Virus record (IMG/VR): IMGVR_UViG_2630968645_000001
Length of the DNA: 64,000 nt
Direction: 5' to 3' (one strand)
Source of the DNA: a virus
The notes under the pieces are model-generated. The model saw nothing but the letters and a program-made list of their open reading frames with translations, did not search any database and had not been told where the DNA came from. This document shows positions 25,768-60,600 of this stretch, piece after piece. Position numbers and translations under genes: made by a program. Numbering within the stretch: position 1 is the stretch's first letter; the number at the start of each line of letters is the position of its first letter.

Positions 25768-27516
25768 TGCGATGTTACAGACTCCTTGTAGCCCAAGGGT
25801 TTGAAAAAAGGATAAAAAAATTTTCCCCCTAAAAAGAGGGGGAAACAAGCAAAAATGATAAAAAAATAAGGAGTGGACAAAAATTCCACCCCACTGAAAC
25901 AAAAACAGGTGAACCCGTTTCCCCAGTAGGTTAAAATAGTTTTAGGACTAACATCTTAACACTGGGAGTTAACACTGGGAGGTTCACCTGTATGGCTATT
26001 ATACCACAAATGAGTCTGTTTACATGGAAAGAAATTGAGATTCTTGGAGATTTAGACCGTCTTCGCCTTGTACTGGACTACATGCCTGATGAAGCGTTCA
26101 TGCAAAGCCTTGAAAAGAAAAGGGGGAAGGGCCGTAATGACTACCCCGTTCGTGCCATGTGGAATTCTATCTTGGCAGGCATTGTATTTCAACATGAAAG
26201 CATTGAGAAATTACGCCGTGAACTCTCCCGTAATGGCCAATTAAGGGAGATGTGTGGCTTTGAAGGGCAGGTTCCAACTTCATATGCCTATACGCGCTTT
26301 CTAAAATCCCTAATCCGTGACGAAGAAATGATGGATAAAATGTTTGAGACTTTGGTAGAACAGCTCCTGGAACGGTTGCCGGATTTTGGTAAACGCTTGG
26401 CAATCGACAGCAAGGCGATCTCATCGTTTTCTAAACATCCGAACAAGCATGAAACCGAGGATGGCCGCCGGGATCTGGATGCAAATCATAGCCAGAAGGT
26501 TTACAGTGGTGTGACAAAAGAAGGCAACCCATGGCAAAAAGTTGTGAAATGGTTTGGCTACAAACTGCATCTGGTGGTGGATGCAACCTACGAGTTACCG
26601 GTAACATTCAAGGTTACAAAAGCGTCTGAGTCAGACATTACGGAAGGGCATAAACTCTTAGAGCAAATGGAAGAAAAGCAGCCAAAGCTTCTGAAAACAG
26701 CGGAAACGATGGCGGGAGACCGGGGTTATGATGACACGAAGCTGATTACGAAACTCTGGGATACGTATAAGATTAAGCCCATCATTGATATTCGCAATAT
26801 GTGGAAAGACCCCGACAAAACACGATTACTCCCGGGAAAGGAAAACGTCGTTTATAACTACAAAGGAACCGTATCCTGCGTATGCCCTGAAACAGGTAAA
26901 CAACGGGAAATGTGCAACGGGGGATTTGAGAAAGACCGCCAGAAACTAAAAAAACTTTGCCCGGCGAAACAAATGGGAGTGACATGTGAAGGCAAGGCTC
27001 AATGCCCCGTGGCACAAGGGCTCCGTATCTCATTATCTGAAGACAGGCGTATTTTTACACCCATTGATCGATCGAGCTATAAGTGGAAAAAAGAATACAA
27101 CAGACGTACAGCTGTAGAGCGCGTGAACAGCCGGCTTGATACTTCTTTCGGCTTTGAACTTCATACAATTCGGGGAATGGCTAAAATGAAGCTGCGTTGT
27201 GGACTGGCACTCTGTGTCATGTTAGCCATGGCCTTAGGCCGGATCAAAGAGAACCAGGCTGAAAAAATGAGAAGCCTCGTTTCTTAACTTATCCACATAA
27301 AGGAAATCAATTTCAAAAAAAGCGCTTGTGGATCATTGGATTCGTGCGCCTTTTTTTAGATACATTTCTATATTTTTTCAACAATTATCTGATAACAGTA
27401 CATTTTTTAAGCGTGCAAAATTGACTTTATAGTGAAAATGGGCATATATTTATCTGACAATATTATATTTCTGGTGGTGTTCTATTTGCATTGAAAGAAA
27501 AATTGTTAACATCGCA
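25768..27516 (+). mobile_element. IS (IS5/IS1182-like DDE transposase); exact ends uncertain by 1-3 nt
   Basis: Terminal IRs TGCGATGTTA / TAACATCGCA flank transposase 25992-27287. Confidence 0.85.
25992..27287 (+). CDS. DDE transposase
   Basis: GRNDYPVRAMW, AIDSK, WFGYKLHLVVD, GDRGYD, RTAVERVNSRL motifs. Confidence 0.93.
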   Translation: MAIIPQMSLFTWKEIEILGDLDRLRLVLDYMPDEAFMQSLEKKRGKGRNDYPVRAMWNSILAGIVFQHESIEKLRRELSRNGQLREMCGFEGQVPTSYAYTRFLKSLIRDEEMMDKMFETLVEQLLERLPDFGKRLAIDSKAISSFSKHPNKHETEDGRRDLDANHSQKVYSGVTKEGNPWQKVVKWFGYKLHLVVDATYELPVTFKVTKASESDITEGHKLLEQMEEKQPKLLKTAETMAGDRGYDDTKLITKLWDTYKIKPIIDIRNMWKDPDKTRLLPGKENVVYNYKGTVSCVCPETGKQREMCNGGFEKDRQKLKKLCPAKQMGVTCEGKAQCPVAQGLRISLSEDRRIFTPIDRSSYKWKKEYNRRTAVERVNSRLDTSFGFELHTIRGMAKMKLRCGLALCVMLAMALGRIKENQAEKMRSLVS

Positions 27517-28299: not shown

Positions 28300-29259
28300 A
28301 TGGGTCAAATTGTAGACTTATCGCATCACAAACCCGCGAATAAAATCAACTGGGAACGATTTGGCAAAGATGTTGATCTGGCCATTATCCGGGTGCAATA
28401 TGGGTCGCTCAAGGAGGACACGGAATATAAAAATCATGTGGCCAACTGCAAAAAGCAGGGCGTGCCCTTTGGCCATTATGCCTATGGGTGCTTTGTATCC
28501 GTAAATGATGCAAAAACCGAGGCAAGGGACTTTTTAAAAAGGGCGGATCCTGCCGCAAAGTTTTTGGTGCTGGACGTGGAAGGCGACACGGTAGAAGCAT
28601 GCGGCACTGAAAACCTCGCGAAAGCGTCCCAGGCATTTATTGACACTTGCAAAGCGGCTGGCCACAAGGTGGGCATTTACATTTCCCACGAGCTTTATAA
28701 AAAGTATGGGCTAAATAAAGTAAAGGCGGATTTTTTATGGCTGCCGCGATACGGTGCAGATAACGGCAAGCCGGACAAGAAGCCAGATTATCCATGCGAT
28801 TTGTGGCAGTACAGCCAAAATTGCAGGGTAGCATGGTACCCGGGCACCGTGGATCTTAATCTGTTAAACGGCAGCAAAAAACTATCCTACTTTACCGGAG
28901 GCGTTGAAAAGGCGGCCGTACAAGTGACGAAATCGGTTAAAAAAGTAGACAACAACAGGACTACCGTTTACACCGTTAAGCCCGGCGATACGCTGTCCGG
29001 TATCGCGCAAAAGTACGGCACCACAGTGGCCAAGCTGCAAAGTCTAAACAGCATCAGCGACCCCAACAAAATTTATGCGGGCCAAAAGCTGAAAATTGCC
29101 GGGAGTGCCTCCACAGCGCAATACTACACGGTTAAGGCTGGGGACAATCTATCCAAAATTGCAAAGCGGTTTGGCACGTCTGTCAGTCACCTGGTGGCGC
29201 TAAATAAGATTAAAAATCCTAACCTGATCCGTGTTGGCCAAAAGTTGCGGGTAAAATAA
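28300..29259 (+). CDS. Endolysin: GH25 lysozyme plus two LysM domains
   Basis: IVDLSHH, LVLDVE, DLWQYS, VDLN; two YTVKxGDxLSxIA LysM repeats. Confidence 0.95.
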
Positions 29260-29316: not shown

Positions 29317-31024
29317 CAGCTCTGAGGAGTAAAAATTTTTCGTGATAATTTAACTATTCCCCCCCCAAAAATGCGGCTAAATATGTAATAATTTAAATAA
29401 TTAGAGCTTGCTGGACGAATATTTTGGCATGGCTTAGTGACAAGTCGAATACAAGCTAAAATTTGATTCGTTCAGCAAGCCCTAATTAAACTTGGCTGTT
29501 TTGAGGGGGTTTTTATTTTGGTTACTAGAAAAGAAAAAAGAAATCGTGAAAAAGAAGCAAATTATTTTTTCGAGTTCCTTAAAATTCAGAAGCATTTTTT
29601 CAAAGACCTGATGAATAACCTAAAAAAGGTAGCAGACCACCGACATCAAAGCTATATCACTTATGGTCCAGAGGTCCTTTTATTTACGATGATGTTGAAA
29701 AATATGACCGGCCTAAAATCCATGAGAAACATGAGTGAGAGTTTTAATAAAGAAGAATGTATTAAAAATGTAGGGAAGGTGTTAGGCTTAGATTCTCTTG
29801 AAGAACTTCCACATTATGATACAATTAACGACTTTTTATCTGGCTTAGATGTAAATGAATTAGAAAAAATTAGAACGTATATGATTAAAGAATTATTGAA
29901 AAAAAGGTCTCTCGAGTCTTATCGAATTGAAGGAAAGTACTGGGGTGTCATCATTGATGGAACTGGATTACACACCTTTCATGAGAAACATTGTAAACAC
30001 TGCCTGAGACGGGCATATACAAATAAAGAAACAGGAGAAACGAACGTACTTTATATGCACCATGTACTTGAAGCCAAGCTTGTCGTGGGGGATATGGTCT
30101 TCAGTATTGCCTCCGAATTTATCGAAAATGAATCAGAAAATGTTTCTAAGCAAGATTGTGAATTAAAAGCCTTCGACAGGCTGGCAAAGAAAATAAAAAA
30201 AATATTTAAAAGACTACCGATTTGTATCTTGGGAGATAGTCTCTATGCATGTGAAACGGTATTTAATCTGTGCAGGGCGCACAAATGGAAATATATATGC
30301 AGATTTAAGGAAGGGAGAATTAAAAGTATCTCGACGGAGTTTAAGGCAATAAAAGAGCTGGAACAAAGTAAGGATCAGAATTCATTAGTTTGGGTGAATG
30401 ATATTGCCTACAAAGACAGAACGGTCAATCTGATGGAGGCCACAATGAAAACAGAGGATGGGAAATCGAAAGAGTATGTATTTATAACGGATATTAAAAT
30501 CACGAAAAAGAACGTGGAACGACTCATCGCTGCAGGAAGAAGCCGCTGGAAGATTGAAAATCAAGGATTTAACGAACAAAAAAATAATCGTTACAATATA
30601 GAACATGCCAATAGCCAAAACTACACAGCCATGAAAAATCATTATTTATTAGTTCAAATAACAGATATTATTAGACAGCTGTTTGAAAAAGGTTCGTCAA
30701 TCTTAAAAGCACTCAAAAAAACGGCAAAAGAAAAATCCTCAAATCTGTTGGAATCGTTTCGGACACGCATTTTAACAGACGAGGATTTCACCCATTTAAG
30801 TAAGCCAATACAAGTAAGGTTTACTTAATGGTTATATTATAGCAAAGGATGTGATGTAAAAAAAGGTTTTTTTGAAGTTATCCACAATTTTAAAAAAGAA
30901 ATTTGCAAATTCGGCTCTTTTTGACTTTGAAAGCAGAAAAAATAGATGGAAAAATTTTCTAAATGTGGATAAGTCATTTTATCATAAAACATCTAAAAAT
31001 TGATGAATTTACTCTTCAGAACTG
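29317..31024 (+). mobile_element. IS copy 2 with intact transposase, inserted in the lysis-cassette terminator
   Basis: Same IRs as copy 1; 9-bp TSD CTCGCAAAT (29308-29316, 31025-31033). Confidence 0.95.
29518..30828 (+). CDS. DDE transposase (436 aa)
   Basis: IIDGTG, LGDSLYA, GRSRWKIENQGF motifs. Confidence 0.92.
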   Translation: MVTRKEKRNREKEANYFFEFLKIQKHFFKDLMNNLKKVADHRHQSYITYGPEVLLFTMMLKNMTGLKSMRNMSESFNKEECIKNVGKVLGLDSLEELPHYDTINDFLSGLDVNELEKIRTYMIKELLKKRSLESYRIEGKYWGVIIDGTGLHTFHEKHCKHCLRRAYTNKETGETNVLYMHHVLEAKLVVGDMVFSIASEFIENESENVSKQDCELKAFDRLAKKIKKIFKRLPICILGDSLYACETVFNLCRAHKWKYICRFKEGRIKSISTEFKAIKELEQSKDQNSLVWVNDIAYKDRTVNLMEATMKTEDGKSKEYVFITDIKITKKNVERLIAAGRSRWKIENQGFNEQKNNRYNIEHANSQNYTAMKNHYLLVQITDIIRQLFEKGSSILKALKKTAKEKSSNLLESFRTRILTDEDFTHLSKPIQVRFT

Positions 31025-31041
31025 CTCGCAAATGTGGGGGC

Positions 31042-31070
31042 TTGAAATTTAAAAAATAACGTGATAATAT
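31042..31070 (+). promoter_or_regulatory. SigA promoter with extended -10
   Basis: TTGAAA-17bp-TAATAT preceded by TGn. Confidence 0.65.
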
Positions 31071-31076
31071 CTTTTT

Positions 31077-31183
31077 AAAGGTATCGCGTCCTTTTAAAAA
31101 AAAATGCGTGGATTGAAACTGTGAATTGGATATTTGAGCTAAGCAAAAACTGCCGGGGCTTATTCCTCGGCAGTTTTGCTTTA
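31077..31183 (+). ncRNA. Solitary type I-C-like CRISPR repeat RNA (Racr candidate)
   Basis: ATCGCGTCC...TGCGTGGATTGAAAC resembles I-C repeats (GTCGC...GCGTGGATTGAAAY); bounded by a promoter and the terminator AAGCAAAAACTGCCGGGG-cttatt-CCTCGGCAGTTTTGCTTT. Confidence 0.65.
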
Positions 31184-31252
31184 TAAATAAGGTCGTAAAA
31201 CCCCTACGCCTTTAGGCTAGTGGTAGTTCAATTTTTAGCCAGAATTGCGTGG

Positions 31253-31645
31253 CTAAATATTTGTTTCCCAGGCATCCACAGTTGCTTTCATAGCTTCCAT
31301 GGCATGTTTTTTTGTGGGAAAATGTTCTATGCCGGATTCCCCGTCATCGACATTGTAAGACGGAACTTCATCCGCATACGGATATTCCGGTCCCCAAGCG
31401 AAGAAGTAATTTCCATTTTCGGCCTTCCCGACGGCGTAGGCCTCGCCGTTATTTGGGAAGTTGTCACGCAATTCAACGATTTCTAATACCTCCACTTTCA
31501 ACTCCTCCTCTTTTTCCTCTACATATTTCCTCATCAATTGTCGGATGACTTCACTCTTGTTTTGCATCAGTGCTTCATTTACGCGGTCGAACCGATCAAG
31601 AAGATCCTGATCAATCCTGTATTGCCTCGTACGTTTCACTTTCAT
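31253..31645 (-). CDS. RHH (CopG-like) domain fused to an acidic unknown domain
   Basis: RBS GGGAGGT before ATG at 31645; TRQYRIDQDLLDRFDRVNEALMQNKSEVIRQLMRKYVE. Confidence 0.7.
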   Translation of the reverse strand: MKVKRTRQYRIDQDLLDRFDRVNEALMQNKSEVIRQLMRKYVEEKEEELKVEVLEIVELRDNFPNNGEAYAVGKAENGNYFFAWGPEYPYADEVPSYNVDDGESGIEHFPTKKHAMEAMKATVDAWETNI

Positions 31646-31682
31646 ACCTCCCATAACCAAAAAGATGGACACAACATGCGCA

Positions 31683-31711
31683 TTGACATGATAAAAGTTT
31701 GTGATTATAAT
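31683..31711 (+). promoter_or_regulatory. Perfect consensus SigA promoter
   Basis: TTGACA-17bp-TATAAT. Confidence 0.85.
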
Positions 31712-31716
31712 TAGTC

Positions 31717-31812
31717 CATGAACCATAACACAGGGTGTATTTAAATAGCATCTTTTTAATTAATTAACCTGTGCTATTTTTTGTTGAACCGTAACATGAG
31801 ATGTAGGGGAAG
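31717..31812 (+). CRISPR. Single-spacer type I-B-like mini-array / CRISPR-like RNA
   Basis: CATGAACCATAACACAGGGTGTATTTAAAT + 36-nt spacer + GTTGAACCGTAACATGAGATGTA(ggggaag); matches the clostridial I-B repeat family GTTGAACC.TAACATGAGATGTATTTAAAT. Confidence 0.75.
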
Positions 31813-31842
31813 AGGGAGCGAATATAAATCCGCTCTCTTTTC
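31811..31842 (+). terminator. Intrinsic terminator, probably bidirectional
   Basis: AGAGGGAGCG-aatataaatc-CGCTCTCTTTT. Confidence 0.7.
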
Positions 31843-32351
31843 TATTTTTCTGGTTTCCCGAATTTTTCCGTCAGCGCAGTTTCTGATATAAACGTATAGG
31901 CGCCGTTACTTTTAAAATGGCCCTCCGGATAATCGGCGCCGTCTATCTCTTCCACCGATATGCCCCAAGTTTTTGCGGCGTCCTTTGCTTCCCACACCTT
32001 AATGCCCAGCGGTTTAAAAGTTTTTCGCATTTCCCGGTACATTTCGGAGGCTTCCGCACGATTCTTTCGTCTGTTATTACGTTCTGCTATTATTTCCTTT
32101 ATTTTCTCGGCAGCCGCCAGGAACTCATCTTCCTCTACTTCCCACGTTCCGACCGTTTTATAATCTGTTTGTATTCTTGATTCGCTGTTGTCGAAAGTGG
32201 TTGACGGTAAAACCTCCCCAAGGCTGAATATGTAATCTTCCTTAACGGCATGTTCGACAATCGCAAATGCCTCGGCAGCTTTTGGTGTCCCCTTTACAAG
32301 CTCCGGGTAAACAGTTTCGGAATAAGACGTTTCTTTATACACAATTTTCAT
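31842..32351 (-). CDS. Hypothetical protein (anti-defence candidate)
   Basis: RBS AGGAGG; co-transcribed with 32371-32742. Confidence 0.75.
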   Translation of the reverse strand: MKIVYKETSYSETVYPELVKGTPKAAEAFAIVEHAVKEDYIFSLGEVLPSTTFDNSESRIQTDYKTVGTWEVEEDEFLAAAEKIKEIIAERNNRRKNRAEASEMYREMRKTFKPLGIKVWEAKDAAKTWGISVEEIDGADYPEGHFKSNGAYTFISETALTEKFGKPEK

Positions 32352-32370
32352 TTTTGTTTCCTCCTAATTT

Positions 32371-32742
32371 TTATGCGTTTATTTTAGCGCCTTTAAATCT
32401 CCAAAACGCTTTTGTTACCGGTGTATATGCGCCACGTTCTTGTGCCACAATAACACCGTTTTGCAATTCAAGAAACCCTTGTTCTTTACGGTATCCGGAT
32501 CCTGTATAGTAATTTACGTATAAGCGTTCCTTCCCGTATTTTGCCCAGTAGTTAACGGAATAGGAATCGCTCTTCATTACGGAATTGATGTATGTTTCAA
32601 CATCTTCCACCGTAATTTCTTTTGCTGCTTTTGCCTCCTTCCATGCGAGCCGGAGAGATTCTGCAAAGTATTCCTTTACCTTTCCGCCAAATTTACGTTG
32701 CCCTGCTTTAGCAATCTCCCAAGCCCGTTTCATAACGTTCAT
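32371..32742 (-). CDS. Hypothetical protein with MKRAWEIAK...LRLAWKEAK N-terminal motif (Acr candidate)
   Basis: First gene after a strong promoter; RBS GAAAGGAG. Confidence 0.75.
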   Translation of the reverse strand: MNVMKRAWEIAKAGQRKFGGKVKEYFAESLRLAWKEAKAAKEITVEDVETYINSVMKSDSYSVNYWAKYGKERLYVNYYTGSGYRKEQGFLELQNGVIVAQERGAYTPVTKAFWRFKGAKINA

Positions 32743-33037: not shown

Positions 33038-33268
33038 TTAATCTTCCCACACATCATCCATCATTTTTTCGATTTCTCTCTTCATTTCATCAGTGCGCTT
33101 TTTGTCAATTCGATATTCGCCGTTTTCATAAATCAGCGCATCGCCCTCTTTGGCACTCTTAGGAAGCTTGCTTCTTTCGATGTCCACCAGTTTCAGGCTC
33201 TCATCTTCACAAACTGCAAATTTTTCGCCCTCAAAATGATCAATAATATACCGTTTCATTGCCCTCAC
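33038..33268 (-). CDS. DUF3006-like protein
   Basis: YIIDHFEGEKFAVCE...LPKSAKEGDAL motif; downstream of the ComEC-like gene. Confidence 0.8.
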   Translation of the reverse strand: MRAMKRYIIDHFEGEKFAVCEDESLKLVDIERSKLPKSAKEGDALIYENGEYRIDKKRTDEMKREIEKMMDDVWED

Positions 33269-34401
33269 CTCGGCGTAAAAGACGTTTGTGTTTTGTATGT
33301 TTTGCCTTTGTAACTTGCCAAGACATCCACTTTTACTTTATATCCCTTTGCTGCCCGGCATATTTTAATAGGGAGTTTCGAGCCGACTTTCCCATTGTAT
33401 GTCGTATTTTTTGACTTATAGTGGCAAACTGCTTTATACTTTGTGCCGTTGGGCAGCCCTCGGACCGTTAGATAAATCGTGCTGTATTGTTTTGGCCTAG
33501 TATTGCTCAATGATGCGGACAATTTGTAGGATGCTTTTGCCGTTGAGCTGGTAGTAGGTGTGCTAACAGGCTTTGTATTAAAGCTTAAATTTTTGCCATC
33601 TGTGTTTGCAACGATCGTGCCTTGTTTGTCTGTACGAAAAACCTTTACTTTTGCAGCTTTTAAGCGATTAAGTGTATCTGCAGTAGGGTGGCCGTAGCTG
33701 TTTCCTTTGCCGACACTGATAACAGCATAGGCAGGTTTAACAGCTCGTAAAAAAGCGGTACTCGTGGATGTTTTAGCACCGTGATGACCAACTTTCAGCA
33801 CATCGGACCGTATATATTGTCTCGATTTAATCATGTCTGACTCGGCCTTAAATTCGGCGTCACCGGTAAACAGAAATGCTTTCTTATTATATTGAAGCCG
33901 TAAAACAGCGCTGTTGTCGTTTAGATCGCTATATTTTTTAACCGGTCCGGCAAACTTGGCAGAAACACCTTTTACGGATAAGCTCACACCCTTAGCAGCA
34001 GTTTTTGCCTTTAATCCCTCATTTTTAACGGCTCTCAGCAAATTAGCATAAGCTTGGGTGCTGTTGGACACTTTTGGAGCATAAAAAGATTTGACTTTGT
34101 ATGCTTTTAAGACCTCGTCCAATCCGCCGATGTGATCGGCATCTGGATGTGTCGCGATCATCACTTCAATGTCACCGACATGTTGCCGTTTTAAATATGA
34201 TACTACTTTGTTTCCGTCACGGCCGCCATCAATTATGATGTCCTCTCCGTTTGGTGCCTTAATATAAATCGAGTCACCCTGTCCAACGTTTATGTAGTGG
34301 ACATACATTTTCTTTGTTGCCGCGTCCGGGCTTTGTGGCAACGCTACCAAAGACAGCAATAAAGCGAGCGCAACTAAGACTTTAAACCTAAAATTTTTCA
34401 T
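33265..34401 (-). CDS. Secreted ComEC/Rec2-like metallo-beta-lactamase-fold hydrolase
   Basis: Signal peptide; INVGQGDSI, THPDADHIGG, LFTGDAE, LKVGHHGA motifs. Confidence 0.9.
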   Translation of the reverse strand: MKNFRFKVLVALALLLSLVALPQSPDAATKKMYVHYINVGQGDSIYIKAPNGEDIIIDGGRDGNKVVSYLKRQHVGDIEVMIATHPDADHIGGLDEVLKAYKVKSFYAPKVSNSTQAYANLLRAVKNEGLKAKTAAKGVSLSVKGVSAKFAGPVKKYSDLNDNSAVLRLQYNKKAFLFTGDAEFKAESDMIKSRQYIRSDVLKVGHHGAKTSTSTAFLRAVKPAYAVISVGKGNSYGHPTADTLNRLKAAKVKVFRTDKQGTIVANTDGKNLSFNTKPVSTPTTSSTAKASYKLSASLSNTRPKQYSTIYLTVRGLPNGTKYKAVCHYKSKNTTYNGKVGSKLPIKICRAAKGYKVKVDVLASYKGKTYKTQTSFTPR

Positions 34402-34551
34402 CTGCACATCTCCCTTCGTGAATATTTTATATGAGAATTTTGGATATGCAATGGGTTTTTGAAAAAAATATGTAAATGCCTGCAAAAAAGAGCAGGCTTT
34501 CACCTGCTCTTTTTTCTACTCAATACAGCTGGCTGGCTGTCATCTTTTGAG

Positions 34552-41963: not shown

Positions 41964-42146
41964 ATGAAGAAAAAACTGACTAACTATTCAAGCGTTGATC
42001 ATCATTGGAAAAAGCTGCTAGGTTGCAAGTGCGGATGGTTCATTGAGACCACAGACGTGCTTCTCATTATCAAAGATTACAACCATAGCAGGCTAATTGA
42101 TTACAGGCAAGAAATTAAGTCGAAACTAGGCGCAATGATCGCCTAG
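41964..42146 (+). CDS. Hypothetical small protein
   Basis: RBS GAGGTG; its stop codon overlaps the ribozyme. Confidence 0.55.
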   Translation: MKKKLTNYSSVDHHWKKLLGCKCGWFIETTDVLLIIKDYNHSRLIDYRQEIKSKLGAMIA

Positions 42147-42185
42147 TCCGCCGGAGATAGCCTCCCGGCGCTGATGAGACAGGCT
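42119..42185 (+). ncRNA. Hammerhead ribozyme, type II
   Basis: GTC-GAAA-[CTAGGCG caatgat CGCCTAG]-TC-[CGCCGG...CCGGCG]-CTGATGA-GAC; GUC cleavage triplet 42146-42148. Confidence 0.88.
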
Positions 42186-42297
42186 GCGGAAAGGGGCGAA
42201 TCAATGAAAATTAAAACAGGTGATTGGCTTAAACTGAATCGTTTTGAAAAGCACATATTGTTGTGTTTGGCAATTCAAGCTGGAAGGAGTGAAAAGA

Positions 42298-50113: not shown

Positions 50114-50584
50114 ATGCGGGCTGAACGCTGCTACACATTGAATGAAGAAACGGAGATACGGGTTGGAAATTGTTTTTTTACCCGTGATGATTTGATTTTG
50201 ATGTATATCGACAGCGGCATGGACGTTTTAAGTTTGGCAAAATCATTGCATATCGGACGGCCAAGGATGGAACGAATACTGGACAAGTTTAACATTCCGA
50301 GAAACTGGCATGCGGAGTTGACACCACGGCATTTACGGGTATTGCGCTTTATTAAATATTTTCAGACGCGCAACAAACGGAGTCCTACAAATTTGGAAAT
50401 TTCAAAAGCATTGAGACTATCGCCCGGTTGCACGAACTATCATCTCAAAAAATTAAAAGCACACGGATATGTAGACTGGAAAAGGTACAGCAGCGGTACA
50501 TTCAAATTAACCAAAAAAGGGGAAGGTTGGTGCCGGAATGCCCACACATTTAATCTATTCTGCTTGGAAGAAGACGAAGGATGA
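50114..50584 (+). CDS. Dual-HTH regulator with LexA-type DNA-binding C-terminal domain
   Basis: LTPRHLRVLRFIKYF...SPTNLEISKALRLSPGCTNYHLKKL; overlaps the csf1 start. Confidence 0.7.
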   Translation: MRAERCYTLNEETEIRVGNCFFTRDDLILMYIDSGMDVLSLAKSLHIGRPRMERILDKFNIPRNWHAELTPRHLRVLRFIKYFQTRNKRSPTNLEISKALRLSPGCTNYHLKKLKAHGYVDWKRYSSGTFKLTKKGEGWCRNAHTFNLFCLEEDEG

Positions 50585-51293
50585 AAACGGTGTGATCTGG
50601 CAGAACACGAAAGACGGAAAAGGAAATGAGATCATACGGAATATTAAGTTTGTAGACCCGATGCAGCATAAGGACATGGAGGAACATACCGGGGCCTGCT
50701 TCCTCTGTGGAAAGCAAATGACACACGGGATGAAGCTGAAAAAGGTATTCTCAAACGTATTCACGGACTGGAACCAGGCAAAAAACCCGTCCGGTACCCA
50801 CGTCTGCCCGGCCTGCTGCTTTTCAATTTTGACCACAAAGGAACGGTACGGATTGAGAACATTCTCCAATGTGGCGAATGAAGAACACCTGTGGCTGCCG
50901 AACCGGGTGGAAATGCGAGAATTCTTGCTGCGGCCACCTGATCCTCCTTTTGTGGTCAACCTGGCCGTTTCGCAGAAAAAGCACATTGCCTTTAAAGGGG
51001 AGGTTAATTATTCACGCGACATATTTACGGTCATGTACGAGGAAATGCCGGTGCTGATTGTATTAAAAAAATTTAAAAAGCTACTAACAATAGTTGAACA
51101 TTTTTTATATGGCTTTACCAAAACTGAAATCACAACAGGAGAATATAGTCAAAAGCGGATCCTTGATTTTGGGATCGATGCATGGGAAGCCTTTGAAGAA
51201 CAGGTAAAACCATACCGGGGTACGCCATTTTTAGACGTCGTTATGTTTGTGGCACAAAGAATAGAAAACGAGGAGCATTCCTGTAATGAAGGA
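50538..51293 (+). CDS. csf1: Type IV CRISPR large subunit Csf1 (Cas8-like); last few codons displaced by IS110
   Basis: CFLCG and CPACC Zn ligands, FSNVFTDWN, PPDPPFVVNLAVSQKKH, GFTKTEITTGEY; native end ...NEGGKLR* at 53089. Confidence 0.85.
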
Positions 51294-53074
51294 AATTTGA
51301 GGTTTGCACAAAAAAGAGCCCCCCTGGTATGATACGAGGTGTCCAGAGCTTCAAAAGCAAGAATGGACCCTTAATTGATATCCAGGGAGGACTCACCATG
51401 AATTATACCCAGAATCACAAGATTTCGCAAATCACGACATCAACGCTCATTATCGGCATTGATGTAGCGAAGGACAAACATGTCGCACGAGCGCAGGATG
51501 ACAGAGGCATTGAGTTTGGCAAACGTCTGATCTTTGAAAATCGATTTCATGGCTTTCAAACCCTGTTGGATTGGATGGAAAGACTAAGAAAACAGAACCA
51601 TAAAGACCATGTGATTTTCGGGTTGAACCAACAGGGCATTTTTGGCTGAGCCTTGCCTATTTTCTTAAGGCTAAGGGTTATGATTTTGTTTTGGTCAACC
51701 CGATGCACGTCAAGAAAAGCAAAGAGCTGGATGACAATTCGCCAACGAAAAATGATACGAAAGATGCCAAAGTGATTGCACAGCTGATTAAGGACGGGCG
51801 ATACTCCGTACCCAATCTCCTGGACGGCATTTATGCCGAACTGAGAGAAGGCGCCAAATTAAGAGATCAGCTCGTTAAACAGCTTATGATCACAGATGGC
51901 CGTATTCAAAACGTTATTCAGCGCTACTTTCCGGAGTTTTTTGACGTATTTAAAGACTGGGAAGGCAAAGCGGCCCTTTGTACCTTAAAAAGTTTTCCAT
52001 TTCCTTCACAAATCAAGGAAATGACTCCTGAAGAAGTGCTTGAGAAATGGAAGACACAGGTTAAAAGAGGTGTCGGCATCAAAAAGGCAACAAAGCTTGT
52101 GGAAGCAGCCAGAAAGAGTATTGGCATTCAAGTTGGCATGAAGTTTGCCAAACGGGAAATAGACTGCCTGCTTGAGCAGTATGAGCTTTACAATCAACAA
52201 ATCCAACAGTTGGATCAAGAACTGGAAAGCCTGGTAGAAGATCTACCGGGAGCCAGGCAAATGATGGCTATCCCAGGCCTGGGAAAGACCACAGTCGCTT
52301 TATTTTTCGCTGAGGTGGGTGACATTACAAAGTATAGCCACCCCCAACAGCTTGTAAATTTAGCAGGGCTCTCATTGAAAGAACATAGTTCAGGGAAGTT
52401 TAAAGGGCAAACAACCATCACCAAACGGGGAAGAAAGAGGCTTCGAAGAGCCTTGTATCTGGCAATTCGCCCGCTGGTTGTGCACAATCCGGCGTTTAAA
52501 GCCCTGCACCAATATTATACAAAGCGCCCTAAACACCCGTTGAAGAAACAGCAGTCACTCATAGCCTTGTGTTGTAAGTTATTGCGTGTCCTATTTGCCA
52601 TTGGCAACAAGCAATGCGATTTTGATGGGGCAAAATTATTGCAAGGATTGCCTCAAATAGAAACATTACAGGTAGCTTAAAAAAGCAAGGTAGCTCTTAA
52701 ATACAGCTTTATTCCGAATAAAACACCAATAGTGCAGAGCCGGAGTTTATTTATTCCATTCGGGCATTATGACCCAGTCGAGGAGCATATCCGGCCTCCA
52801 CCTCATGGATACGCAGGACGAAGGAATGTGTGGACCCCGATCCTGGGAGACATAGGAGGGTGAGCGACCGTGAGTTGTGTGGAGATTTTATGCACGGTTA
52901 TACCTTTTCGTTTACCAAATATATCCAATTTGGTTGTTAGGATGGACCTTACCCTGCAAGAAAATTCTGCTTATATCTATTTAGAGGTGTGACAACGATT
53001 AGGTGTAAATCAAATACCTATGAAATTTGGAGAATATGCGAGTAAATGAGAGATAATTGAACTTTATTGAAGGA
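51294..53074 (+). mobile_element. IS110-family element; transposase frameshifted
   Basis: Shared core TGAAGGA at 51287 and 53068; IGIDVAKD, NPMHVK...KNDTKDA, SSGKFKG...ITKRGRKRLR motifs; one base missing near 51620. Confidence 0.9.
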
Positions 53075-53085
53075 GGAAAACTAAG

Positions 53086-54039
53086 ATGAATCATTACCGT
53101 TTAGAAACCATTTATACATTTGTTGCAACCGTTAAGCCATATCGGGGAAAGTGAATCAACTCAAAGTTTTCTGAACACGGCTACAGTCGTCAACGATGGA
53201 AAGCCGGAGGAAGTATTTGTTTATACGGGAAATGCTTTGAGAGGCATGCTGCGGGACTGTGGGGCGCGTTACTTACTAAACCGGTTAGATATTCGTGTCC
53301 CGTTAAAAGCCTTCCATTTTGCTTTTCAGCGGCGGCTCAATTTGGTGGGGCCCAGGCACTGGATATTGACCAGGCTAAGATCATCCGCAAGGCCCTTCCA
53401 TTTGTCTCCCTATTTGGCGGAGGCGTCGGAAATCAGATTTTGGATGGAAAGCTAAAGCAAACATTTGTTTATCCTGTCTGCAGGGAAACGAACAATATCA
53501 TCCCAAGTTATGTTGAAAAGTCCGACTATAGTTGGAGACATTTTACAAATGTGATTGAGTTTACCCGGAAAGATGACGAGAAGAATGTGAATCTTGCGGA
53601 GCAGTTTTTAATTGGACAAGGAGAACAGCAATTACTCGAGGGAGAAAACCACCAAAAAAGAAGAAAGAAAAGATGGCCCAGCTACACAAATGCGGTACGG
53701 CGTCGAATATTTAGCGGCCGGTACGAAACTATGGCACCGTTGGGATATTATCTGCGATGAATTAGAGCTTGGGGCATTTGTATCAGCCCTGCACGAATGG
53801 CAGAAGCAGCCTTACCTTGGGGGCATGAGCGGCAAGGGTTTTGGATTGGTTGGCAGCCGATATGGAATTGGTAACGGAAGACGGACGCGAAACAATTTGC
53901 ACAGATTGGACAGGAATTTATCAAGCTAGGAACGACCGCAGAACAGGCAAAGGCTGCATATGATGCTCATCTGCAGGAAATGTATGATGCTTATTTAATT
54001 GACAACAAAGAAGAATTCACCAAGCTGCTGGCAGGTTGA
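53086..54039 (+). pseudogene. csf2: Type IV Cas7 (Csf2), six +1 frameshifts as sequenced
   Basis: PLSHIG, GNALRGMLRD, LFSGG, SLFGGGVGNQILDGKL, TRKDD, YLGGMSGKGFG; removing 6 duplicated bases gives 315 aa. Confidence 0.88.
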
Positions 54040-54045
54040 GGTGAA

Positions 54046-54731
54046 ATGAAGAATTTGAAGATCACGGCCCGTCTTTTGGACGGGCGCGTGAACTCCAATG
54101 ATGGCATTTTTAATCTCGACAGCATATTGGCCTATGCGTGGATGTTGGAAAACCATCCGGACGATCTGCTCAATAACAATTTAAAGCCAGATAACCTAAT
54201 AGAACCAGATCTTCCTCTAGCTAAAGATGAGGACGGAAGGTGGAAAGTATCTCTAGGATTTTATAAGCAATATGCTGAAACCGTTGAGTACTGGGCATAA
54301 GAAAGTAAACGATTTTGACCGCGGCTTATTACGTTGATTTTGGTGGAAAGCGCGGCAAAATAAACGGTGCGTCCGGTGAGTTTAAAGCTTACCGCATGCC
54401 ACAAATGATCAGAATCGTAAGTGATATTGAATTTTACGCGGTTGGTGATCCAAACGGGATCCGGCACTTGCTTGCTCATATAACGAATATTGGCAAGAAA
54501 GCATCTCAAGGCTATGGATATATACGAGAATGGGCCATAGAAGAAAGCGAAGACGATTATACAGATATCGGTCCGTATGGAATCATGCGGGCACGCCCGT
54601 TTAAAGGTGAACTTCCGGACGATGGTCAAGCATATCAAATTAAGAAAATACGAATGAAACCGCCCTATCACCTACATACGGGCCAGGTGCCGTGTATTAT
54701 CCCAAATGTAAGGAGAGATCAGCTTGCTTAA
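54046..54731 (+). pseudogene. csf3: Type IV Cas5 (Csf3), two +1 frameshifts as sequenced
   Basis: LDSILAYA, LPLA, GEFKAYRMP, FYAVGD, IGKKASQGYGYIREWAIE; corrected length 227 aa. Confidence 0.85.
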
Positions 54732-55440
54732 AATAAAACTACCTATCCAATTTGATGATGGAAAAGCCATGTATGATGCAGTATTGGCGATCATTCATAA
54801 ACATTCTCCTGTGCTGTCTAAAATGGTTCACGATAACCACGAATACAATCCGTTTAGTATTGAATTGCCTGACATTGTCAATGTGATAGGTTTGGAGATT
54901 GAACCATTTTTTAAAAACCTGAATGGTATCGAAATTTTGCGTGATGTTTCATATAAAGATTTGTTAAATAAGAAATATGACAATGTGACAATTCTCGTAC
55001 AGTTTAACAATACGACGTTTTCCCGAAAAGGATATGATACACCGATCCCAGATCCAAATCATATTTTACAGAGTTTGAAAGACAGGTGGAACCAGCTTTT
55101 TCCAGATAAAATCGATATTAAAATCCCTTTTCACGGTGAAAATACCAGGGAATATACGGTGATTAAATTTTTGAACATACATTCAGCAACGCAAAAAATA
55201 GCCGACTACAGGCCATACACTGTTTTTTATGGAAAAGTTGGATTTAAATTTTACGGAGATGAGGCATACGTTCAAAAAGCAAATATTCTTTTTCGGTTTG
55301 CTGAATTTGCGGGTGTTGGGCTTAAACGGCAAATGGGAATGGGAGTTACAAAAATATTGGCAAAAGGGGACGCGAAAACAAATGATGACAGAAGCAGAGA
55401 AAGAAACGTACATGCTGCGTGCGACGCTGCCGGGATTTAA
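54724..55440 (+). CDS. cas6: Cas6 crRNA-processing endoribonuclease
   Basis: NPFSI, PDPNHILQSLKDRWN, GKVGF, FRFAEFAGVGLKRQMGMG G-rich loop. Confidence 0.9.
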   Translation: MLKIKLPIQFDDGKAMYDAVLAIIHKHSPVLSKMVHDNHEYNPFSIELPDIVNVIGLEIEPFFKNLNGIEILRDVSYKDLLNKKYDNVTILVQFNNTTFSRKGYDTPIPDPNHILQSLKDRWNQLFPDKIDIKIPFHGENTREYTVIKFLNIHSATQKIADYRPYTVFYGKVGFKFYGDEAYVQKANILFRFAEFAGVGLKRQMGMGVTKILAKGDAKTNDDRSRERNVHAACDAAGI

Positions 55441-56158
55441 AAGAAAAGTATCAAGAAGTTTAGAAATTATTCGCGAAGCACTGGCAATAGAAGGCATTAA
55501 GTGGTCTGCATCCGTTAGCTTTGGGAAGGATAGTCTCGTGATGCTGGATTTATTAAGCCAGGTGATGGATGAGATCCCCGTATACTTCATGGATAGCGAC
55601 TATAAACTCCCAGAAATATATGAGACTATTGAATTATCACAGGAGCGATATAAAATAAATATTAGTAGAGCATATTTTGCTGACCGTCGCCCAATACAAG
55701 AGGTTTGGGAAAAGTTCGGAATTCCGGGTATCAATCGAACAACGAACATGCAAAATAAGGCACTCAAAGTTTTAAAGAAGGATGTCTCTGATAAATGGGC
55801 AAAAGAACATGGCTATAACGGAATCTTTTGGGGTATCCGCAAACAAGAATCAGCTCAAAGGAAATGGATGGTCACATCTTTTGGTGTGACATTTGAGAAC
55901 AAGCAGGGATTTTACCGATGTGCGCCCATTGCCTACTGGGATGCAAAAGACGTATGGGCTTATATCGTATCTCGAAATTTGGATTATCCTAAATTATATG
56001 ATTATCAAAAATACCAAACACGCGACTGGATCCGTAACACTGGTTGGGCGACGACAGACGGTGCTGAACGTGGACGTATTATCTGGTTGCGGGAATTCTA
56101 TCCAAACTATTACGATGAGTTGCGGTGGATGCTACCGAAAATAGATGCATATGTTTAA
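55382..56158 (+). CDS. CysH/PAPS-reductase-like protein (type IV-B accessory)
   Basis: SVSFGKDSLVML, FWGIRKQESAQR, PIAYWDAKDVWAYI, YPKLYD; ATG 55382 overlaps the cas6 end. Confidence 0.88.
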   Translation: MMTEAEKETYMLRATLPGFKRKVSRSLEIIREALAIEGIKWSASVSFGKDSLVMLDLLSQVMDEIPVYFMDSDYKLPEIYETIELSQERYKINISRAYFADRRPIQEVWEKFGIPGINRTTNMQNKALKVLKKDVSDKWAKEHGYNGIFWGIRKQESAQRKWMVTSFGVTFENKQGFYRCAPIAYWDAKDVWAYIVSRNLDYPKLYDYQKYQTRDWIRNTGWATTDGAERGRIIWLREFYPNYYDELRWMLPKIDAYV

Positions 56159-56243: not shown

Positions 56244-57690
56244 TGATGCTAGTATAGTTTCATGGACACCCTTTAGTGAAATATAATATTAACGAAGGGA
56301 TGTGTCCTGATATGGGTAACACAAGCGAAAAACGTAAAAGTTATCATGCTGAATTTAAAGAAATGGTGGTTGAGCTTTATCAAACTGGAACACCAGTAAA
56401 ACAGATCTGCAGCGAATATGGCCTGTCTGAAACGACAATCTACAAATGGATCAGAAAACAAAAACCGGTTAAGCTGGATGACGGGAGCTCTTTTACCCCG
56501 GAAGAATTTCTGAACCTGCAAAAAGAATTGCACCGGCTGAAAGAGGAAAACGAAATCTTAAAAAAAGCTATGGCCATATTCGCAAAGAAGTAGATCAAAC
56601 CACTGTTATATCCATGATTGACGAGATAAGAGCCAAACACCATTATGACCTTAAAACCATGTGTACGGTCCTTGGCGTGCCGAGAAGTACCTACTATCAA
56701 TCCAAACAAAAAAAAGAGTCAAAAACAAAACGGGAAAACCGGGAGTTGACAGACAGAATACGAAAAATCCATACGGAAAGCAAGCAGAGGTACGGAGCGC
56801 CGAAGATCCGCCATATGCTTGAAAAAGAAGGGCTCAAAGTCAGCCTGAAACGGGTTCAGCGTTTGATGAAGGCTGCAGGCATTTATTCCATTATCAGAAA
56901 AAAGTACCGTCCCCATTCCAATAAGGGCAAGATGGAAGAACACGATAACCTGCTGAACCAGGACTTCTCAACGACAACCATCAACGAGAAATGGGTTACG
57001 GATATTACGTACATTCATACTTTGAGAGACGGTTGGTGCTACCTGGCTTCCGTAATGGATTTACATTCCAGAAAGATTGTCGGTTACGCTTTTGACCGCC
57101 ACATGACGACTGAACTGGCTTTAAAGGCAGTAGAAAACGCTTATCAGGCACAACGTCCAGGTCCGGGATTGATCTTGCATTCTGATTTGGGATCCCAGTA
57201 TACAAGCGAGAAATTTGCAGAATACATGGAAAAGAAGCAGTTCAAACACTCCTTCAGTAAAAAAGGTTGCCCATACGATAACGCCTGCATTGAGTCTTTC
57301 CATGCAATTCTGAAAAAGGAAGAGATCTACAGAGTCAACTATTTGAACTTTCAAGCTGCCAAAAGAGCCTTATTCGAATTTATAGAAGGCTGGTACAATC
57401 GGAAACGGATTCATAGCTGCTTGGGCTATATGACGCCACAAGAGACAGAAGACAGTATCAAAGGGGCAGCGTAGTGCTCTTCACAATTTTACAAGCATCC
57501 GCTTTACATGGAGTGGCGGGTGTGGCAGGCTTGTTTGCCATGCGAAAGAAATCATTGCCCCTTTCGCCCTTCGCATAACACCACGCCCGCAGAGGCTCCA
57601 TGTCAAGCGACCAGCGATGTCATGAAAAATATGGCATGAGATCAAAATTAAATTTCACTTATTGGTGTCCAAAATATTGACTTAAATCCA
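56244..57690 (+). mobile_element. IS3-family element (orfA 56311-56593, orfB 56614-57474)
   Basis: TG...CA ends with imperfect IRs ending in TGGACACC; 3-bp TSD TAT; WVTDITY, HSDLGSQY, DNACIESF rve motifs. Confidence 0.93.
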
Positions 57691-60600
57691 TATGGGCACA
57701 TTACGTGGTGAGTTGAAGAAATGGGGAAAGCAGAATCAAAATAAGGAAAATAAGCCACGAGGAAGGCCGAGAAAGACGAAATCAGAGCGATTAAGTCAAC
57801 ACGATATAAAAACACTTATGGGATATTATGATCCCGTATATAAGCGAGGGAGAGGCGGAGCATGGAGAAATGGAAGATGAACAAGCAAGAAATCTCACAG
57901 GCATTAAAGGATTATCATTGGATGATCAACGAAATCAAGAGACAGCGTAAAATGCTGGAGAATGAAGTGAGAAGCAACATCACATCCCAATATGGGGAAG
58001 AATCCGCCTTACCGAAGCCAAAAGGAACAAATAGTGATCCGGTTTACCGTGAAATTTTACGTCGGGAGAAAACGCATCAATGGATTAATCGGCTGCAGAA
58101 GAAAGTTCTATTTATTCAGGAACATGTTGATTGTGTACGAGGAGAACGCGAACGTGCTGTGCTGGAGTGCCTGCTGGACGGGATGAGCGTAATTGCCATT
58201 AGCCGGCACATGGGACTATCAGAAAGGAATATTCGTCTTATACGGGAAGACATTGTCAATGCTATGTATGAAAATGCCGGATTTGCCGGAAATGCCGGAT
58301 TTGCCGGTTTTGCAGGATAGATGCAGCACAAGAAAAAATATATGTAAAATGGAAGGCAGGACCGGAGAGGAAAAATCCGGGGCGTGAGAAATTTCACGAA
58401 AACCATAATTCACCTTGCGGTGAATAATTAAGGGTTCGAGGTTATCCCGGACGAGCTTCTTAATTCGAGACGGGGTAGCAGAAATGTGGACCTGGGTTAA
58501 AACCTTGTCGGTTTCGAGGCTTATTTTATTGCAGGAATTTGCCTTCTTTTGTCGAAGTTATTGACGAAGGGAGGCGAATGAAATGAAGGTTTATGAACTA
58601 ATCAAGGAATTAGAAAACTATCCACATCAAGATGCAGAGATTGGCGTGAATTTCCAAATAACATTAGCACAATCTGATAAAATAATTTCCAATATCACTA
58701 AAGTAAACGGCATCTTGAAACCTTTAAACAAAAATGATAATACGACGGTATTATTAGACACAGAAGAAATCAGAGAAAACATTTAAGCATCCTTCGGGGT
58801 GCTTTTTATTTTGCTCCAAAACAAACACAAATAGTCGGAGGTGGCAGGTGATGTAGCAGGTGACGGACAAATACATTCAAGCTGAAAAAGATTATGTCAA
58901 AGGCATGAAATACAAGGACATTGCTGAAAAATATGGCGTGTCTTTAAATACGGTCAAGTCATGGAAAAAGCGTTATGGTTGGACGCGTGAAAAGGGTGCA
59001 CACAAAGAAAAAAGTGTGCACACAAAAAATAAAAGGGGCGCACCTGTCGGGAATATAAATGCAAAAGGAAATAAAGGCGGTGCGGCTCCAAAAGGAAACC
59101 AAAACGCTGTCACTCACGGTTTCTTCTCCAAATATCTGCCACAGGAATCACTGGACATTCTGGAAGAGATTCAAGAGCATTCTCCCGTCGACATGCTCTG
59201 GGATCAGATAATGATTCAGTATGCTGCTATTATACGAGCGCAGAAAATAATGTTCGTTGAATCAAAAGATGAAATGATCAAGGAGATTAAGAAAACCAAG
59301 TCAGATATCGGGGAGAATTACGAGACGAACGAAGAAGAGTGGGAATTTCAATTCGCTTGGGATCGCCAGGCGACTTTTCTTAACGCCCAATCTCGGGCCA
59401 TGTCAGAACTGCGAAGCTTGATCAAGCAGTTTAATGAACTGGCACACGAAGATGATGAACGCCGTCTGAAGCTTGAACAGATGCAGCTAAACATTGATAA
59501 AACAAAAGCTAAGATTAAGGAAATCACGAATGAAAGCAACCAAGACGACCGGACGATCATCATCAACAACGAGGATGAAATGAGGCGGATTTTGAATGAA
59601 CGCAATCAAGATAACCGACCTGATTAATCCAGTGTTTTATGATTTCTGGCTAAATGAGAAGCCAAACAGTGTGCTAAAAGGCGGCCGTTCATCCATGAAA
59701 TCCTCGGTCATCTCTTTGAAATTGCTTGTTGATTTTTTAAATGATGATCAGGGGAATGTTGTGGTGCTGCGGAAAGTAGGAAAATATCTTTCCACATCCG
59801 TTTATGAACAAATCAAATGGGCCATATACATGCTCAAAGTCGAAAATGAATTCTACTTTGGAAAATCACCATTGATCATTCGGCACAAACGGACGAACAC
59901 GGCTTTTTATTTTTACGGCGTTGATGATCCGATGAAAATCAAATCCGCCAAGATTGCAAAGGGATATGTCATGGCACTTTGGTTCGAGGAACTGGCCGAG
60001 TTCGCAGGCGTCGAGGATATCGATATTGTTTCCGATACATTCATCCGGCAGGACCTGGGCGAAAAGGAAGTAAAAATTTATTATTCTTACAACCCACCTC
60101 GAAACCCGTATGAGTGGGTGAATGAATGGGTAGATAGCAAAGCTAGCGATCCGGATTATTTTGTTCACCATTCAACGTACATGGATGATGAAAAAGGTTT
60201 CTTGTCGCATCAGATGATCCGGAAAATTGAACAATACAAGGAAAATGATCTTGATTACTGGCGCTGGATGTATGCGGGTGAAATTATCGGACTTGGCGAT
60301 ATGGTTTACAATATGAACCATTTCCATTGGATTGATGAATTGCCAAGTGATGATGATCTGCTGCTGATCGATATCGCGATTGACTCCGGATACCAAACAT
60401 CGGCGACAACATTTTGTGCGTTTGGGCTTACAAAACGGCTTAATGTTATTCTGCTCGATACTTTTTACTATTCCCCTCAAAATCGAGTGGTTAAGAAGGC
60501 ACCAAGTGAGTTCTCGGACGACTTGAAAGAGTTTGAAAGGGAACTATCGAGGTTTAAAAGAAACATCGATATGAGGACGATAGACAGTGCAGAAGGAGCG

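Follow-up and report, generated by a model that had tools for sequence, protein, structure and literature searches.

A phage-borne CRISPR-like mini-array in Heyndrickxia coagulans as a candidate type I-B Cas-repressing RNA gene

Described systems closest to the locus

The closest described relatives of the locus presented here are the Cracr RNAs, viral Cas-repressing crRNA-like RNAs that include predicted I-B candidates (Liu 2024-26; bioRxiv 10.1101/2024.10.29.618823). This model was foreshadowed for I-B phages of Clostridium perfringens, e.g. c-st and phiSM101 (Shmakov 2023, PMC10120712). There, a host mini-array upstream of cas6 targets a site with a I-B PAM between itself and cas6, and the phage copy shares the seed. 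CreA and CreR RNAs, known from I-B and V-A systems (CreTA and cas autorepression), are encoded by the host inside the cas locus; they consist of psi-repeat, psi-spacer and psi-repeat and act by partial complementarity, with Cascade binding without cleavage. Racrs (Camara-Wilpert 2023, PMC10651486) are promoter-driven, repeat-mimicking small RNAs of prophages, encoded near candidate anti-defence genes, and are single repeats that form aberrant sub-complexes. In viral mini-arrays, according to two reports (PMC6858448, PMC7099407), it is the sections kept in the mature crRNA that are conserved.

The unit described here, carried by a temperate phage of Heyndrickxia (Bacillus) coagulans, is probably a gene of the Cracr kind, i.e. 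one for a viral crRNA-like RNA that silences the cas operon of the host by means of the host's own Cascade. Judged by the text of the Cracr preprint, it is a new and well-supported example of this already described kind of counter-defence. As in the Cracr study, a crRNA-like gene is located on a phage outside a CRISPR-cas locus, in a probably anti-defence accessory island, and its guide has the PAM-proximal part of the guide of a host regulatory mini-array, with a predicted partial match to a cas promoter. Cracrs are recognised by at least 9 PAM-proximal bases in common with the host mini-array guide, and the phage guide has these. The Cracr experiments concern V-A, I-E and I-F systems, whereas the present unit is I-B; the literature consulted contains no experiments on type I-B Cracrs. 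Furthermore, the viral guide is longer than that of the host regulator (36 versus 28 nt), while the viral guides of the I-F Cracrs are shorter. Unlike in the Cracr study, all host loci here keep their own mini-array, and the allele in the analysed DNA has a seed mismatch.

With the C. perfringens case the unit shares the arrangement of host mini-array, target site and seed-sharing phage copy, and its repeat family is that of the clostridial loci L022, L133, L032 and L055. Host genus and phage are different, and the guides of phage and host differ at every sixth base instead of being identical over a 15-nt run. With an identity of only 70-77% between the phage repeats and the host repeat, the unit would probably be missed by the search in PMC10120712, which was performed at 80% identity. 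The architecture and the partial complementarity of CreA and CreR are found here too, but on a phage and with a match to a site at the cas6 promoter. Like a Racr, the unit is driven by a promoter, mimics CRISPR repeats and belongs to a prophage, where other candidate anti-defence genes are close by; in contrast to Racrs, it possesses two repeats, a guide of canonical length and a specific promoter target.

The phage and its accessory island

The DNA analysed (hereafter the window) is the whole stretch of 64,000 nucleotides of the IMG/VR record IMGVR_UViG_2630968645_000001. It repeats itself with a period of 57,316 bases, 443-1138 being the same as 57759-58454, and the chromosome CP009709.1 has two copies of the accessory island with the gene of a 169-aa protein, at a distance of 57,318 bases from each other. 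A Cas6 encoded by the phage falls in a protein cluster whose name gives the species as Heyndrickxia coagulans. In all likelihood the window thus represents a tandem prophage, or the assembly of one, from a H. coagulans strain of the DSM 1 type. A complete 45-kb phage with terminal repeats from IMG/VR (G001) is 100% identical to the window over 31200-32400. Among the GenBank phages no relative of the 1-kb region around the unit was detected.

The unit is set among phage genes, with endolysin and integrase nearby, in an accessory island that has the lysis genes on one side and the attachment site on the other. Its surroundings comprise the endolysin gene (28300-29259), an insertion sequence, genes of a ribbon-helix-helix protein, the 169-aa protein, a Gp111-like protein and a metallo-beta-lactamase-fold protein, and the integrase gene. 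Neither cas1 nor cas2 was found by annotation of the genes near the unit. Its direct neighbours are:

31253..31645, minus strand: divergent ribbon-helix-helix protein, 130 aa (PF01402, E 7e-5; CopG-like PHROGs)
31842..32351, minus strand: convergent 169-aa protein of the accessory island, no assigned function; its stop codon overlaps the terminator of the unit

The ribbon-helix-helix gene is considered as context only, and the mode of action proposed below does not depend on it; the third allele of the unit (see below) has a different upstream gene at this place. The 169-aa protein has no match in Pfam or PHROG.

Several further features of the prophage were observed. At least four transposase genes are present (25992-27287, 29518-30828, 51691-52680 and 56614-57474); the one at 29518-30828, absent in G001, splits the lysin from the accessory island. 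The metallo-beta-lactamase-fold protein (33265-34503, minus strand) is encoded beside the attachment site and has orthologues with weak Pfam matches to the anti-Pycsar protein Apyc1; it may be a cyclic-nucleotide-degrading counter-defence enzyme. The early region of the phage contains a type II hammerhead ribozyme (42118-42188, plus strand; RF02276, 39.4 bits against a gathering score of 37).

Anatomy of the unit

The preliminary description, made from the letters of the window alone, had reported a promoter, two repeats of the I-B family, a 36-nt spacer and a terminator, and each of these elements was recovered at its place:

31683..31711, plus strand: sigma-A promoter, TTGACA (31683-31688), 17 nt, TATAAT (31706-31711)
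31717..31746, plus strand: psi-repeat 1, degenerate 5' end, intact 8 nt at the 3' end
31747..31782, plus strand: psi-spacer (guide), 36 nt; pairing part at guide positions 1-21 (31747-31767)
31783..31812, plus strand: psi-repeat 2, first 23 nt repeat-like, last 7 degenerate
31808..31851, plus strand: intrinsic terminator, 13-bp stem (31808-31843) with 10-nt loop, T-run to about 31851
31739..31804, plus strand: predicted mature crRNA-like RNA, 66 nt (8-nt handle, 36-nt guide, 22-nt 3' handle)

The promoter agrees with the consensus in 12 of 12 positions and is the sole perfect match within 31000-32500; the transcript is predicted to start at about 31718. The two psi-repeats are in register, 66 nt apart, and neither strand of the 64 kb has any other match to the repeat when three versions of it are searched with up to 8 substitutions allowed. 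In folding predictions psi-repeat 1 forms the hairpin ACAC (31728-31731), AGG, GTGT (31735-31738). It is followed at 31739-31746 by the intact 8-nt 5' handle ATTTAAAT, the end of psi-repeat 1, and the Cas6 cut is predicted between 31738 and 31739. In psi-repeat 2 the first 22 nt (31783-31804) would form the 3' handle with the hairpin ACAT/GAG/ATGT, and degeneracy is confined to the part past the predicted Cas6 cut. The 66-nt RNA is predicted from the canonical Cas6 cut 8 nt ahead of the repeat end. Its guide length is within the range of 34-38 nt seen for spacers of the host arrays. The region 31718-31850 folds with -33.5 kcal/mol (z -2.85); the scanner for consensus terminators missed 31808-31851 solely because the loop has 10 nt. 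An Rfam search with the unit returned no family.

Psi-repeat 1 is identical to the H. coagulans I-B repeat (PMC8954581, Table 4) in 23 of 30 positions, and the first 23 nt of psi-repeat 2 in 19 of 23. An even closer relative of psi-repeat 1 (27 of 28 positions) is a promoter-driven solitary repeat on a plasmid of Clostridium tetani. The suggestion that the handle and the beginning of the spacer pair with the spacer end, which might favour a decoy role, was not borne out, the corresponding fold being no better than that of shuffled sequence (z -0.71).

I-B systems of the host and pressure on the phage

In the H. coagulans strains 2-6, H-1 and P38, cas operons of type I-B are present along with arrays whose 30-nt repeat belongs to the family of the unit (PMC8954581). 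DSM 1 has I-C systems and prophage-borne type IV genes and no I-B system of this repeat family (PMC8954581). The comparison with host arrays called for in the preliminary description showed that the repeat family occurs in the host lineage together with I-B cas genes. In a scan of metagenome contigs we detected 15 that carry arrays with the exact H. coagulans I-B repeat, some of them from the same samples as contigs of the phage. A scan of genome contigs for the repeat yielded almost only Clostridium arrays, with no H. coagulans record among the matches listed. A search for Cas7 (PF01905) in two Bacilli MAGs gave no match, and an open reading frame beside a Pseudogracilibacillus array, considered as a candidate Cas1, was identified as a sugar kinase by protein search.

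Nearly full-length matches to the window or to G001, many of them at 100%, were found for 31 of 393 unique spacers. The trinucleotide 5' of these 31 protospacers is TCA in 22 cases, TCG in 4 and CCA in 3. Derived from these protospacers, the TCA PAM is established independently of the phage unit. Judging by the spacers, the phage family is under strong I-B pressure. One host I-B spacer matches the gene of the 169-aa protein (32142-32177) at 100%. Another one (contig L180) matches 31110-31144 at 97%, inside a putative solitary repeat unit of I-C-like type (31042-31183).

The host mini-array and the shared target at the cas6 promoter

Contig L178 contains a complete locus in the order cas6-cas8b-cas7-cas5b-cas3-cas4-cas1b-cas2-array. 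Upstream of cas6, on the other strand, it carries a divergent mini-array with a 28-nt guide. Such a mini-array divergent from cas6 is present in all 33 H. coagulans I-B loci examined. Psi-repeat 1 and the guide of the host mini-array are invariant in these 33 loci, which represent 12 upstream variants and include strains 2-6 (CP002472.1) and H-1.

Apart from the host mini-array itself, L178 contains a single site that matches the seed of the phage guide in 10 of 10 positions. This site is flanked by the PAM TCA, is located on the coding strand of cas6 and ends 3 nt ahead of the -35 hexamer in the top-ranking predicted promoter of cas6; in strain 2-6 the distance from its start to the ATG of cas6 is 94 nt. 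The search of the guide against host cas promoters, proposed on the basis of the window alone with the provision of a I-B PAM, was thereby answered in the affirmative. Within positions 1-21 the phage guide with T at position 3 (see below) mismatches the promoter site only at 6, 12 and 18, and the host guide mismatches it only at 6 and 18. When compared with each other over positions 1-22, the two guides have 19 of 22 bases in common, the exceptions being 6, 12 and 18, and they share none of the 6 bases past position 22. For the allele of the window, 18 of the 22 bases are shared with the host guide, 9 of them in the first 11.

In type I complexes every sixth base of the guide is flipped out and remains unpaired. 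The probability that three mismatches in 21 positions coincide with precisely 6, 12 and 18 is 1 in 1330. Such drift at 6, 12 and 18 and past the paired part is, as far as the sequences tell, the trace that would be expected from selection on a partial-match guide bound by Cascade. Some host variants have one T less in the T-run of the target, so that the register is shifted past position 11-12. Moreover, the guide is AT-rich, and a degenerate pattern of 17 bases made from it gave more than 115 chance matches to unrelated viruses in IMG/VR. The weight therefore rests on the position of the site, the PAM and the sixth-base pattern and not on the match alone.

Alleles of the phage unit

Three alleles of the unit were found in 33 loci; they share one guide that differs at a single base:

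Window allele: C at guide position 3 (31749); isolates and G001
Second allele: T at guide position 3, two changes in repeat 2; 18 metagenomic phage contigs, some with very high coverage
Third allele: T at guide position 3, unrelated upstream gene, changed promoter spacer

Thirteen loci, found in several isolates and in metagenomes, have the window allele without any change. Although the flanks differ, the promoter hexamers, repeat 1 and the guide (bar position 3) are conserved across the three alleles. Both hexamers are invariant, while several bases between them and among the first ones past the -10 hexamer vary. From repeat 1 to the terminator, position 3 of the guide is the sole difference between the window allele and the third allele. 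Spacer turnover, as a trait of adaptive arrays, was not seen among the 33 loci.

The T at position 3 is the base present in both the host target and the host guide. The C of the window is therefore a derived seed mismatch. Drift in lysogens that lack I-B may account for it, or the mismatch may be tolerated.

Proposed mode of action

We propose that the sigma-A promoter, being constitutive, gives rise to a transcript of about 130 nt, which Cas6 of a I-B host would cut in both repeats, after 31738 and after 31804. The product would be a 66-nt RNA with the correct 8-nt 5' handle, the 36-nt guide and a 3' hairpin, suited to be loaded into the Cascade of the host. Positions 1-21 of the guide would then pair with the TCA-flanked site abutting the -35 hexamer of the cas6-cas8b-cas7-cas5-cas3 promoter, each sixth base being skipped. 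As the remainder of the guide would stay unpaired, Cascade is expected to bind without cleavage by Cas3, and the cas operon would be repressed, presumably to the benefit of a phage that is heavily targeted by I-B spacers. In addition, the phage RNA may compete with immune crRNAs for Cas proteins. The host itself seems to use this promoter site for autoregulation, as the target of its own mini-array, and the phage would have copied the host guide. Among the roles considered from the window alone was the hijacking of the host I-B Cascade for repression of a cas promoter; the host mini-array, the copied guide and the TCA site support this proposal.

Among the findings that count against this reading, two concern the window allele. 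Its C at guide position 3 is a mismatch in the seed and could weaken binding, and the lysogens with this allele include DSM 1, where a I-B partner for the RNA is not known.

Should the Cracr-like mode of action hold, lysogens with the unit may have weakened I-B immunity, which bears on phage problems in fermentations and on genome editing with the endogenous I-B system. H. coagulans is culturable and of industrial use, and its strains vary in the presence of I-B, making it a clean natural system for a I-B Cracr. I-B spacers against the phage family are numerous, and some metagenome samples contain phage and host together. Host regulator, phage mimic and promoter site form a matched triplet with differences in the pairing region only at every sixth base, and the naturally occurring alternatives T and C at seed position 3 offer a ready contrast for seed tolerance.

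Transcription of the region

Transcription across the region of the unit is supported by RNA data, with ambiguous strand. Contigs of about 1.7 kb that cover the unit from end to end are present in two RNA-seq assemblies, each from a different study. In one raw RNA run the depth of reads in one orientation increases from about 48 (31718-31731) to 116 (31732-31745) and to about 500 (31858-31871), and does not decrease at the terminator; for reads in the opposite orientation it remains close to 40. In a second run analysed as raw reads the phage was absent altogether. If the usual dUTP convention applies, the reads represent plus-strand RNA from just past the promoter through the terminator; under the opposite convention they are the tail of the mRNA of the convergent gene. 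These are standard RNA-seq libraries, in which a 66-nt product would not be captured. Nine fragment ends each were found at 31736 and at 31738, below the threshold of the tool. Without the last T of the adapter these become 31737 and 31739, the latter being the predicted end of the Cas6 product; this is only a hint.

In the RNA run X21, 27 reads end sharply at 31653, and 18 others continue from 31667 into a different left flank. From these read ends and the switch of the flank, it seems that the X21 strain possesses the unit a second time, in different surroundings.

Alternative explanations

The type IV-like genes of the phage are relevant to one of the alternatives and are located as follows:

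50114-56158, plus strand: type IV-like module with an HTH gene, csf-like genes, Cas6 and PAPS reductase, interrupted by insertion sequences
54724-55440, plus strand: phage Cas6 (PF10040, E 1.4e-13)
55229-56158, plus strand: PAPS reductase (CysH)

Relatives of the module encode Csf1 and Csf3 and have no array in their vicinity, and intact ones are located directly ahead of the terminase genes in the phage contigs L137 and L139. Host I-B spacers match the module at 100% at 50571-50607, 50793-50829, 51158-51193, 53479-53513 and 54881-54916. The unit had been described as far from any cas gene, which is inexact: the phage-encoded Cas6 is about 23 kb away. No functional link between the unit and this Cas6 was found.

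A pure decoy of the Racr type, in which the RNA soaks up Cas6 and Cas7 or fills Cascade uselessly and the match to the cas6 promoter is irrelevant, would suit a unit that is repeat-like, strongly promoted and located in an accessory island. The strengthened ACAC/GTGT stem of repeat 1 (see below) would be apt for competition for Cas6, the seed mismatch of the window allele would not matter, and in the Racr study a non-targeting crRNA alone lowers interference (PMC10651486). This explanation is nevertheless rather unlikely, as it cannot account for a guide that is kept at the pairing positions and drifts at 6, 12, 18 and past 22; two repeats with a full-length guide are also unlike the solitary repeat units. 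Competition for Cas proteins is probably part of the effect of the unit all the same. That the unit is an inactive relic, a decaying copy whose RNA signal is the 3' untranslated tail of the mRNA of the convergent 169-aa gene, appears improbable. The seed mismatch, the lysogen without a cognate I-B system and one interpretation of the reads (a minus-strand tail that ends near 31730, without a step at the terminator) would agree with decay. However, the perfect promoter, both hairpins, the handle and the terminator are intact, the identity of the window allele extends over isolates and metagenomes, and a single base of the guide separates it from the other alleles.

The array-less Csf/Cas6 module of the phage (about 50.1-56.2 kb) might itself use the guide in place of the host Cascade. 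The phage encodes a Cas6 and a PAPS reductase, and the relatives of the module with Csf1 and Csf3 likewise have no array near them. Type IV complexes are not known to have a nuclease, which would suit silencing. Such a use is very unlikely: G001 carries the identical mini-array but has no module, the four related type IV phage contigs L137-L140 contain no repeat of this family in up to 20 kb, and a comparison of the phage Cas6 with the I-B Cas6 of the host revealed no similarity (E 0.5). Handle and repeats fit the host I-B family instead, and the target bears the host I-B PAM. The special case that this phage complex loads the I-B-style RNA and silences the host cas6 promoter itself has just as little probability; if true, it would be a self-contained CRISPR-interference weapon of the phage against host CRISPR, active before host Cascade is available. 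An even smaller likelihood is given to a role in inter-phage conflict, also raised from the window alone, in which the crRNA would steer host Cascade and Cas3 to a competing phage or plasmid. The architecture is that of published viral mini-arrays and the guide has full length, yet a protospacer was found neither in IMG/VR nor in the GenBank phages or plasmids. In IMG/VR the exact 36-mer is confined to the element itself, the pattern tolerant at each sixth base gave only chance matches there, none of which extended, GenBank phages offered nothing better than E 0.6, and the matches in plasmids concern the repeat family only. The invariance of the guide bar one base, with the lack of spacer turnover, does not fit such a role either. 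Targets within the phage itself were absent at up to 3 mismatches.

The hairpin of repeat 1 and related units

The stem of repeat 1 (ACAC/GTGT) departs from that of array repeats (ACAT/ATGT) by a compensatory pair of changes. The changed stem occurs in 12 of 22 isolated virus-borne units of this repeat family and in none of the 1812 array repeats sampled. Six of the 12 units are from this phage family, and six are from unrelated, probably clostridial, viral contigs. The stem is present in repeat 2 of the host mini-array, too. One might speculate that the stronger hairpin favours binding of Cas6.

Many promoter-driven solitary or mini units of the same I-B family were seen, at L022 (4629-4655), L133, L032/L055, L007 (1417-1590), L145, L148, L155, L158, L160 and L163. 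Some of them are located upstream of Clostridium cas6 and resemble host regulators; others are on phages of the Clostridium type and on the C. tetani plasmid. The virus-borne ones mostly have the ACAC/GTGT stem.
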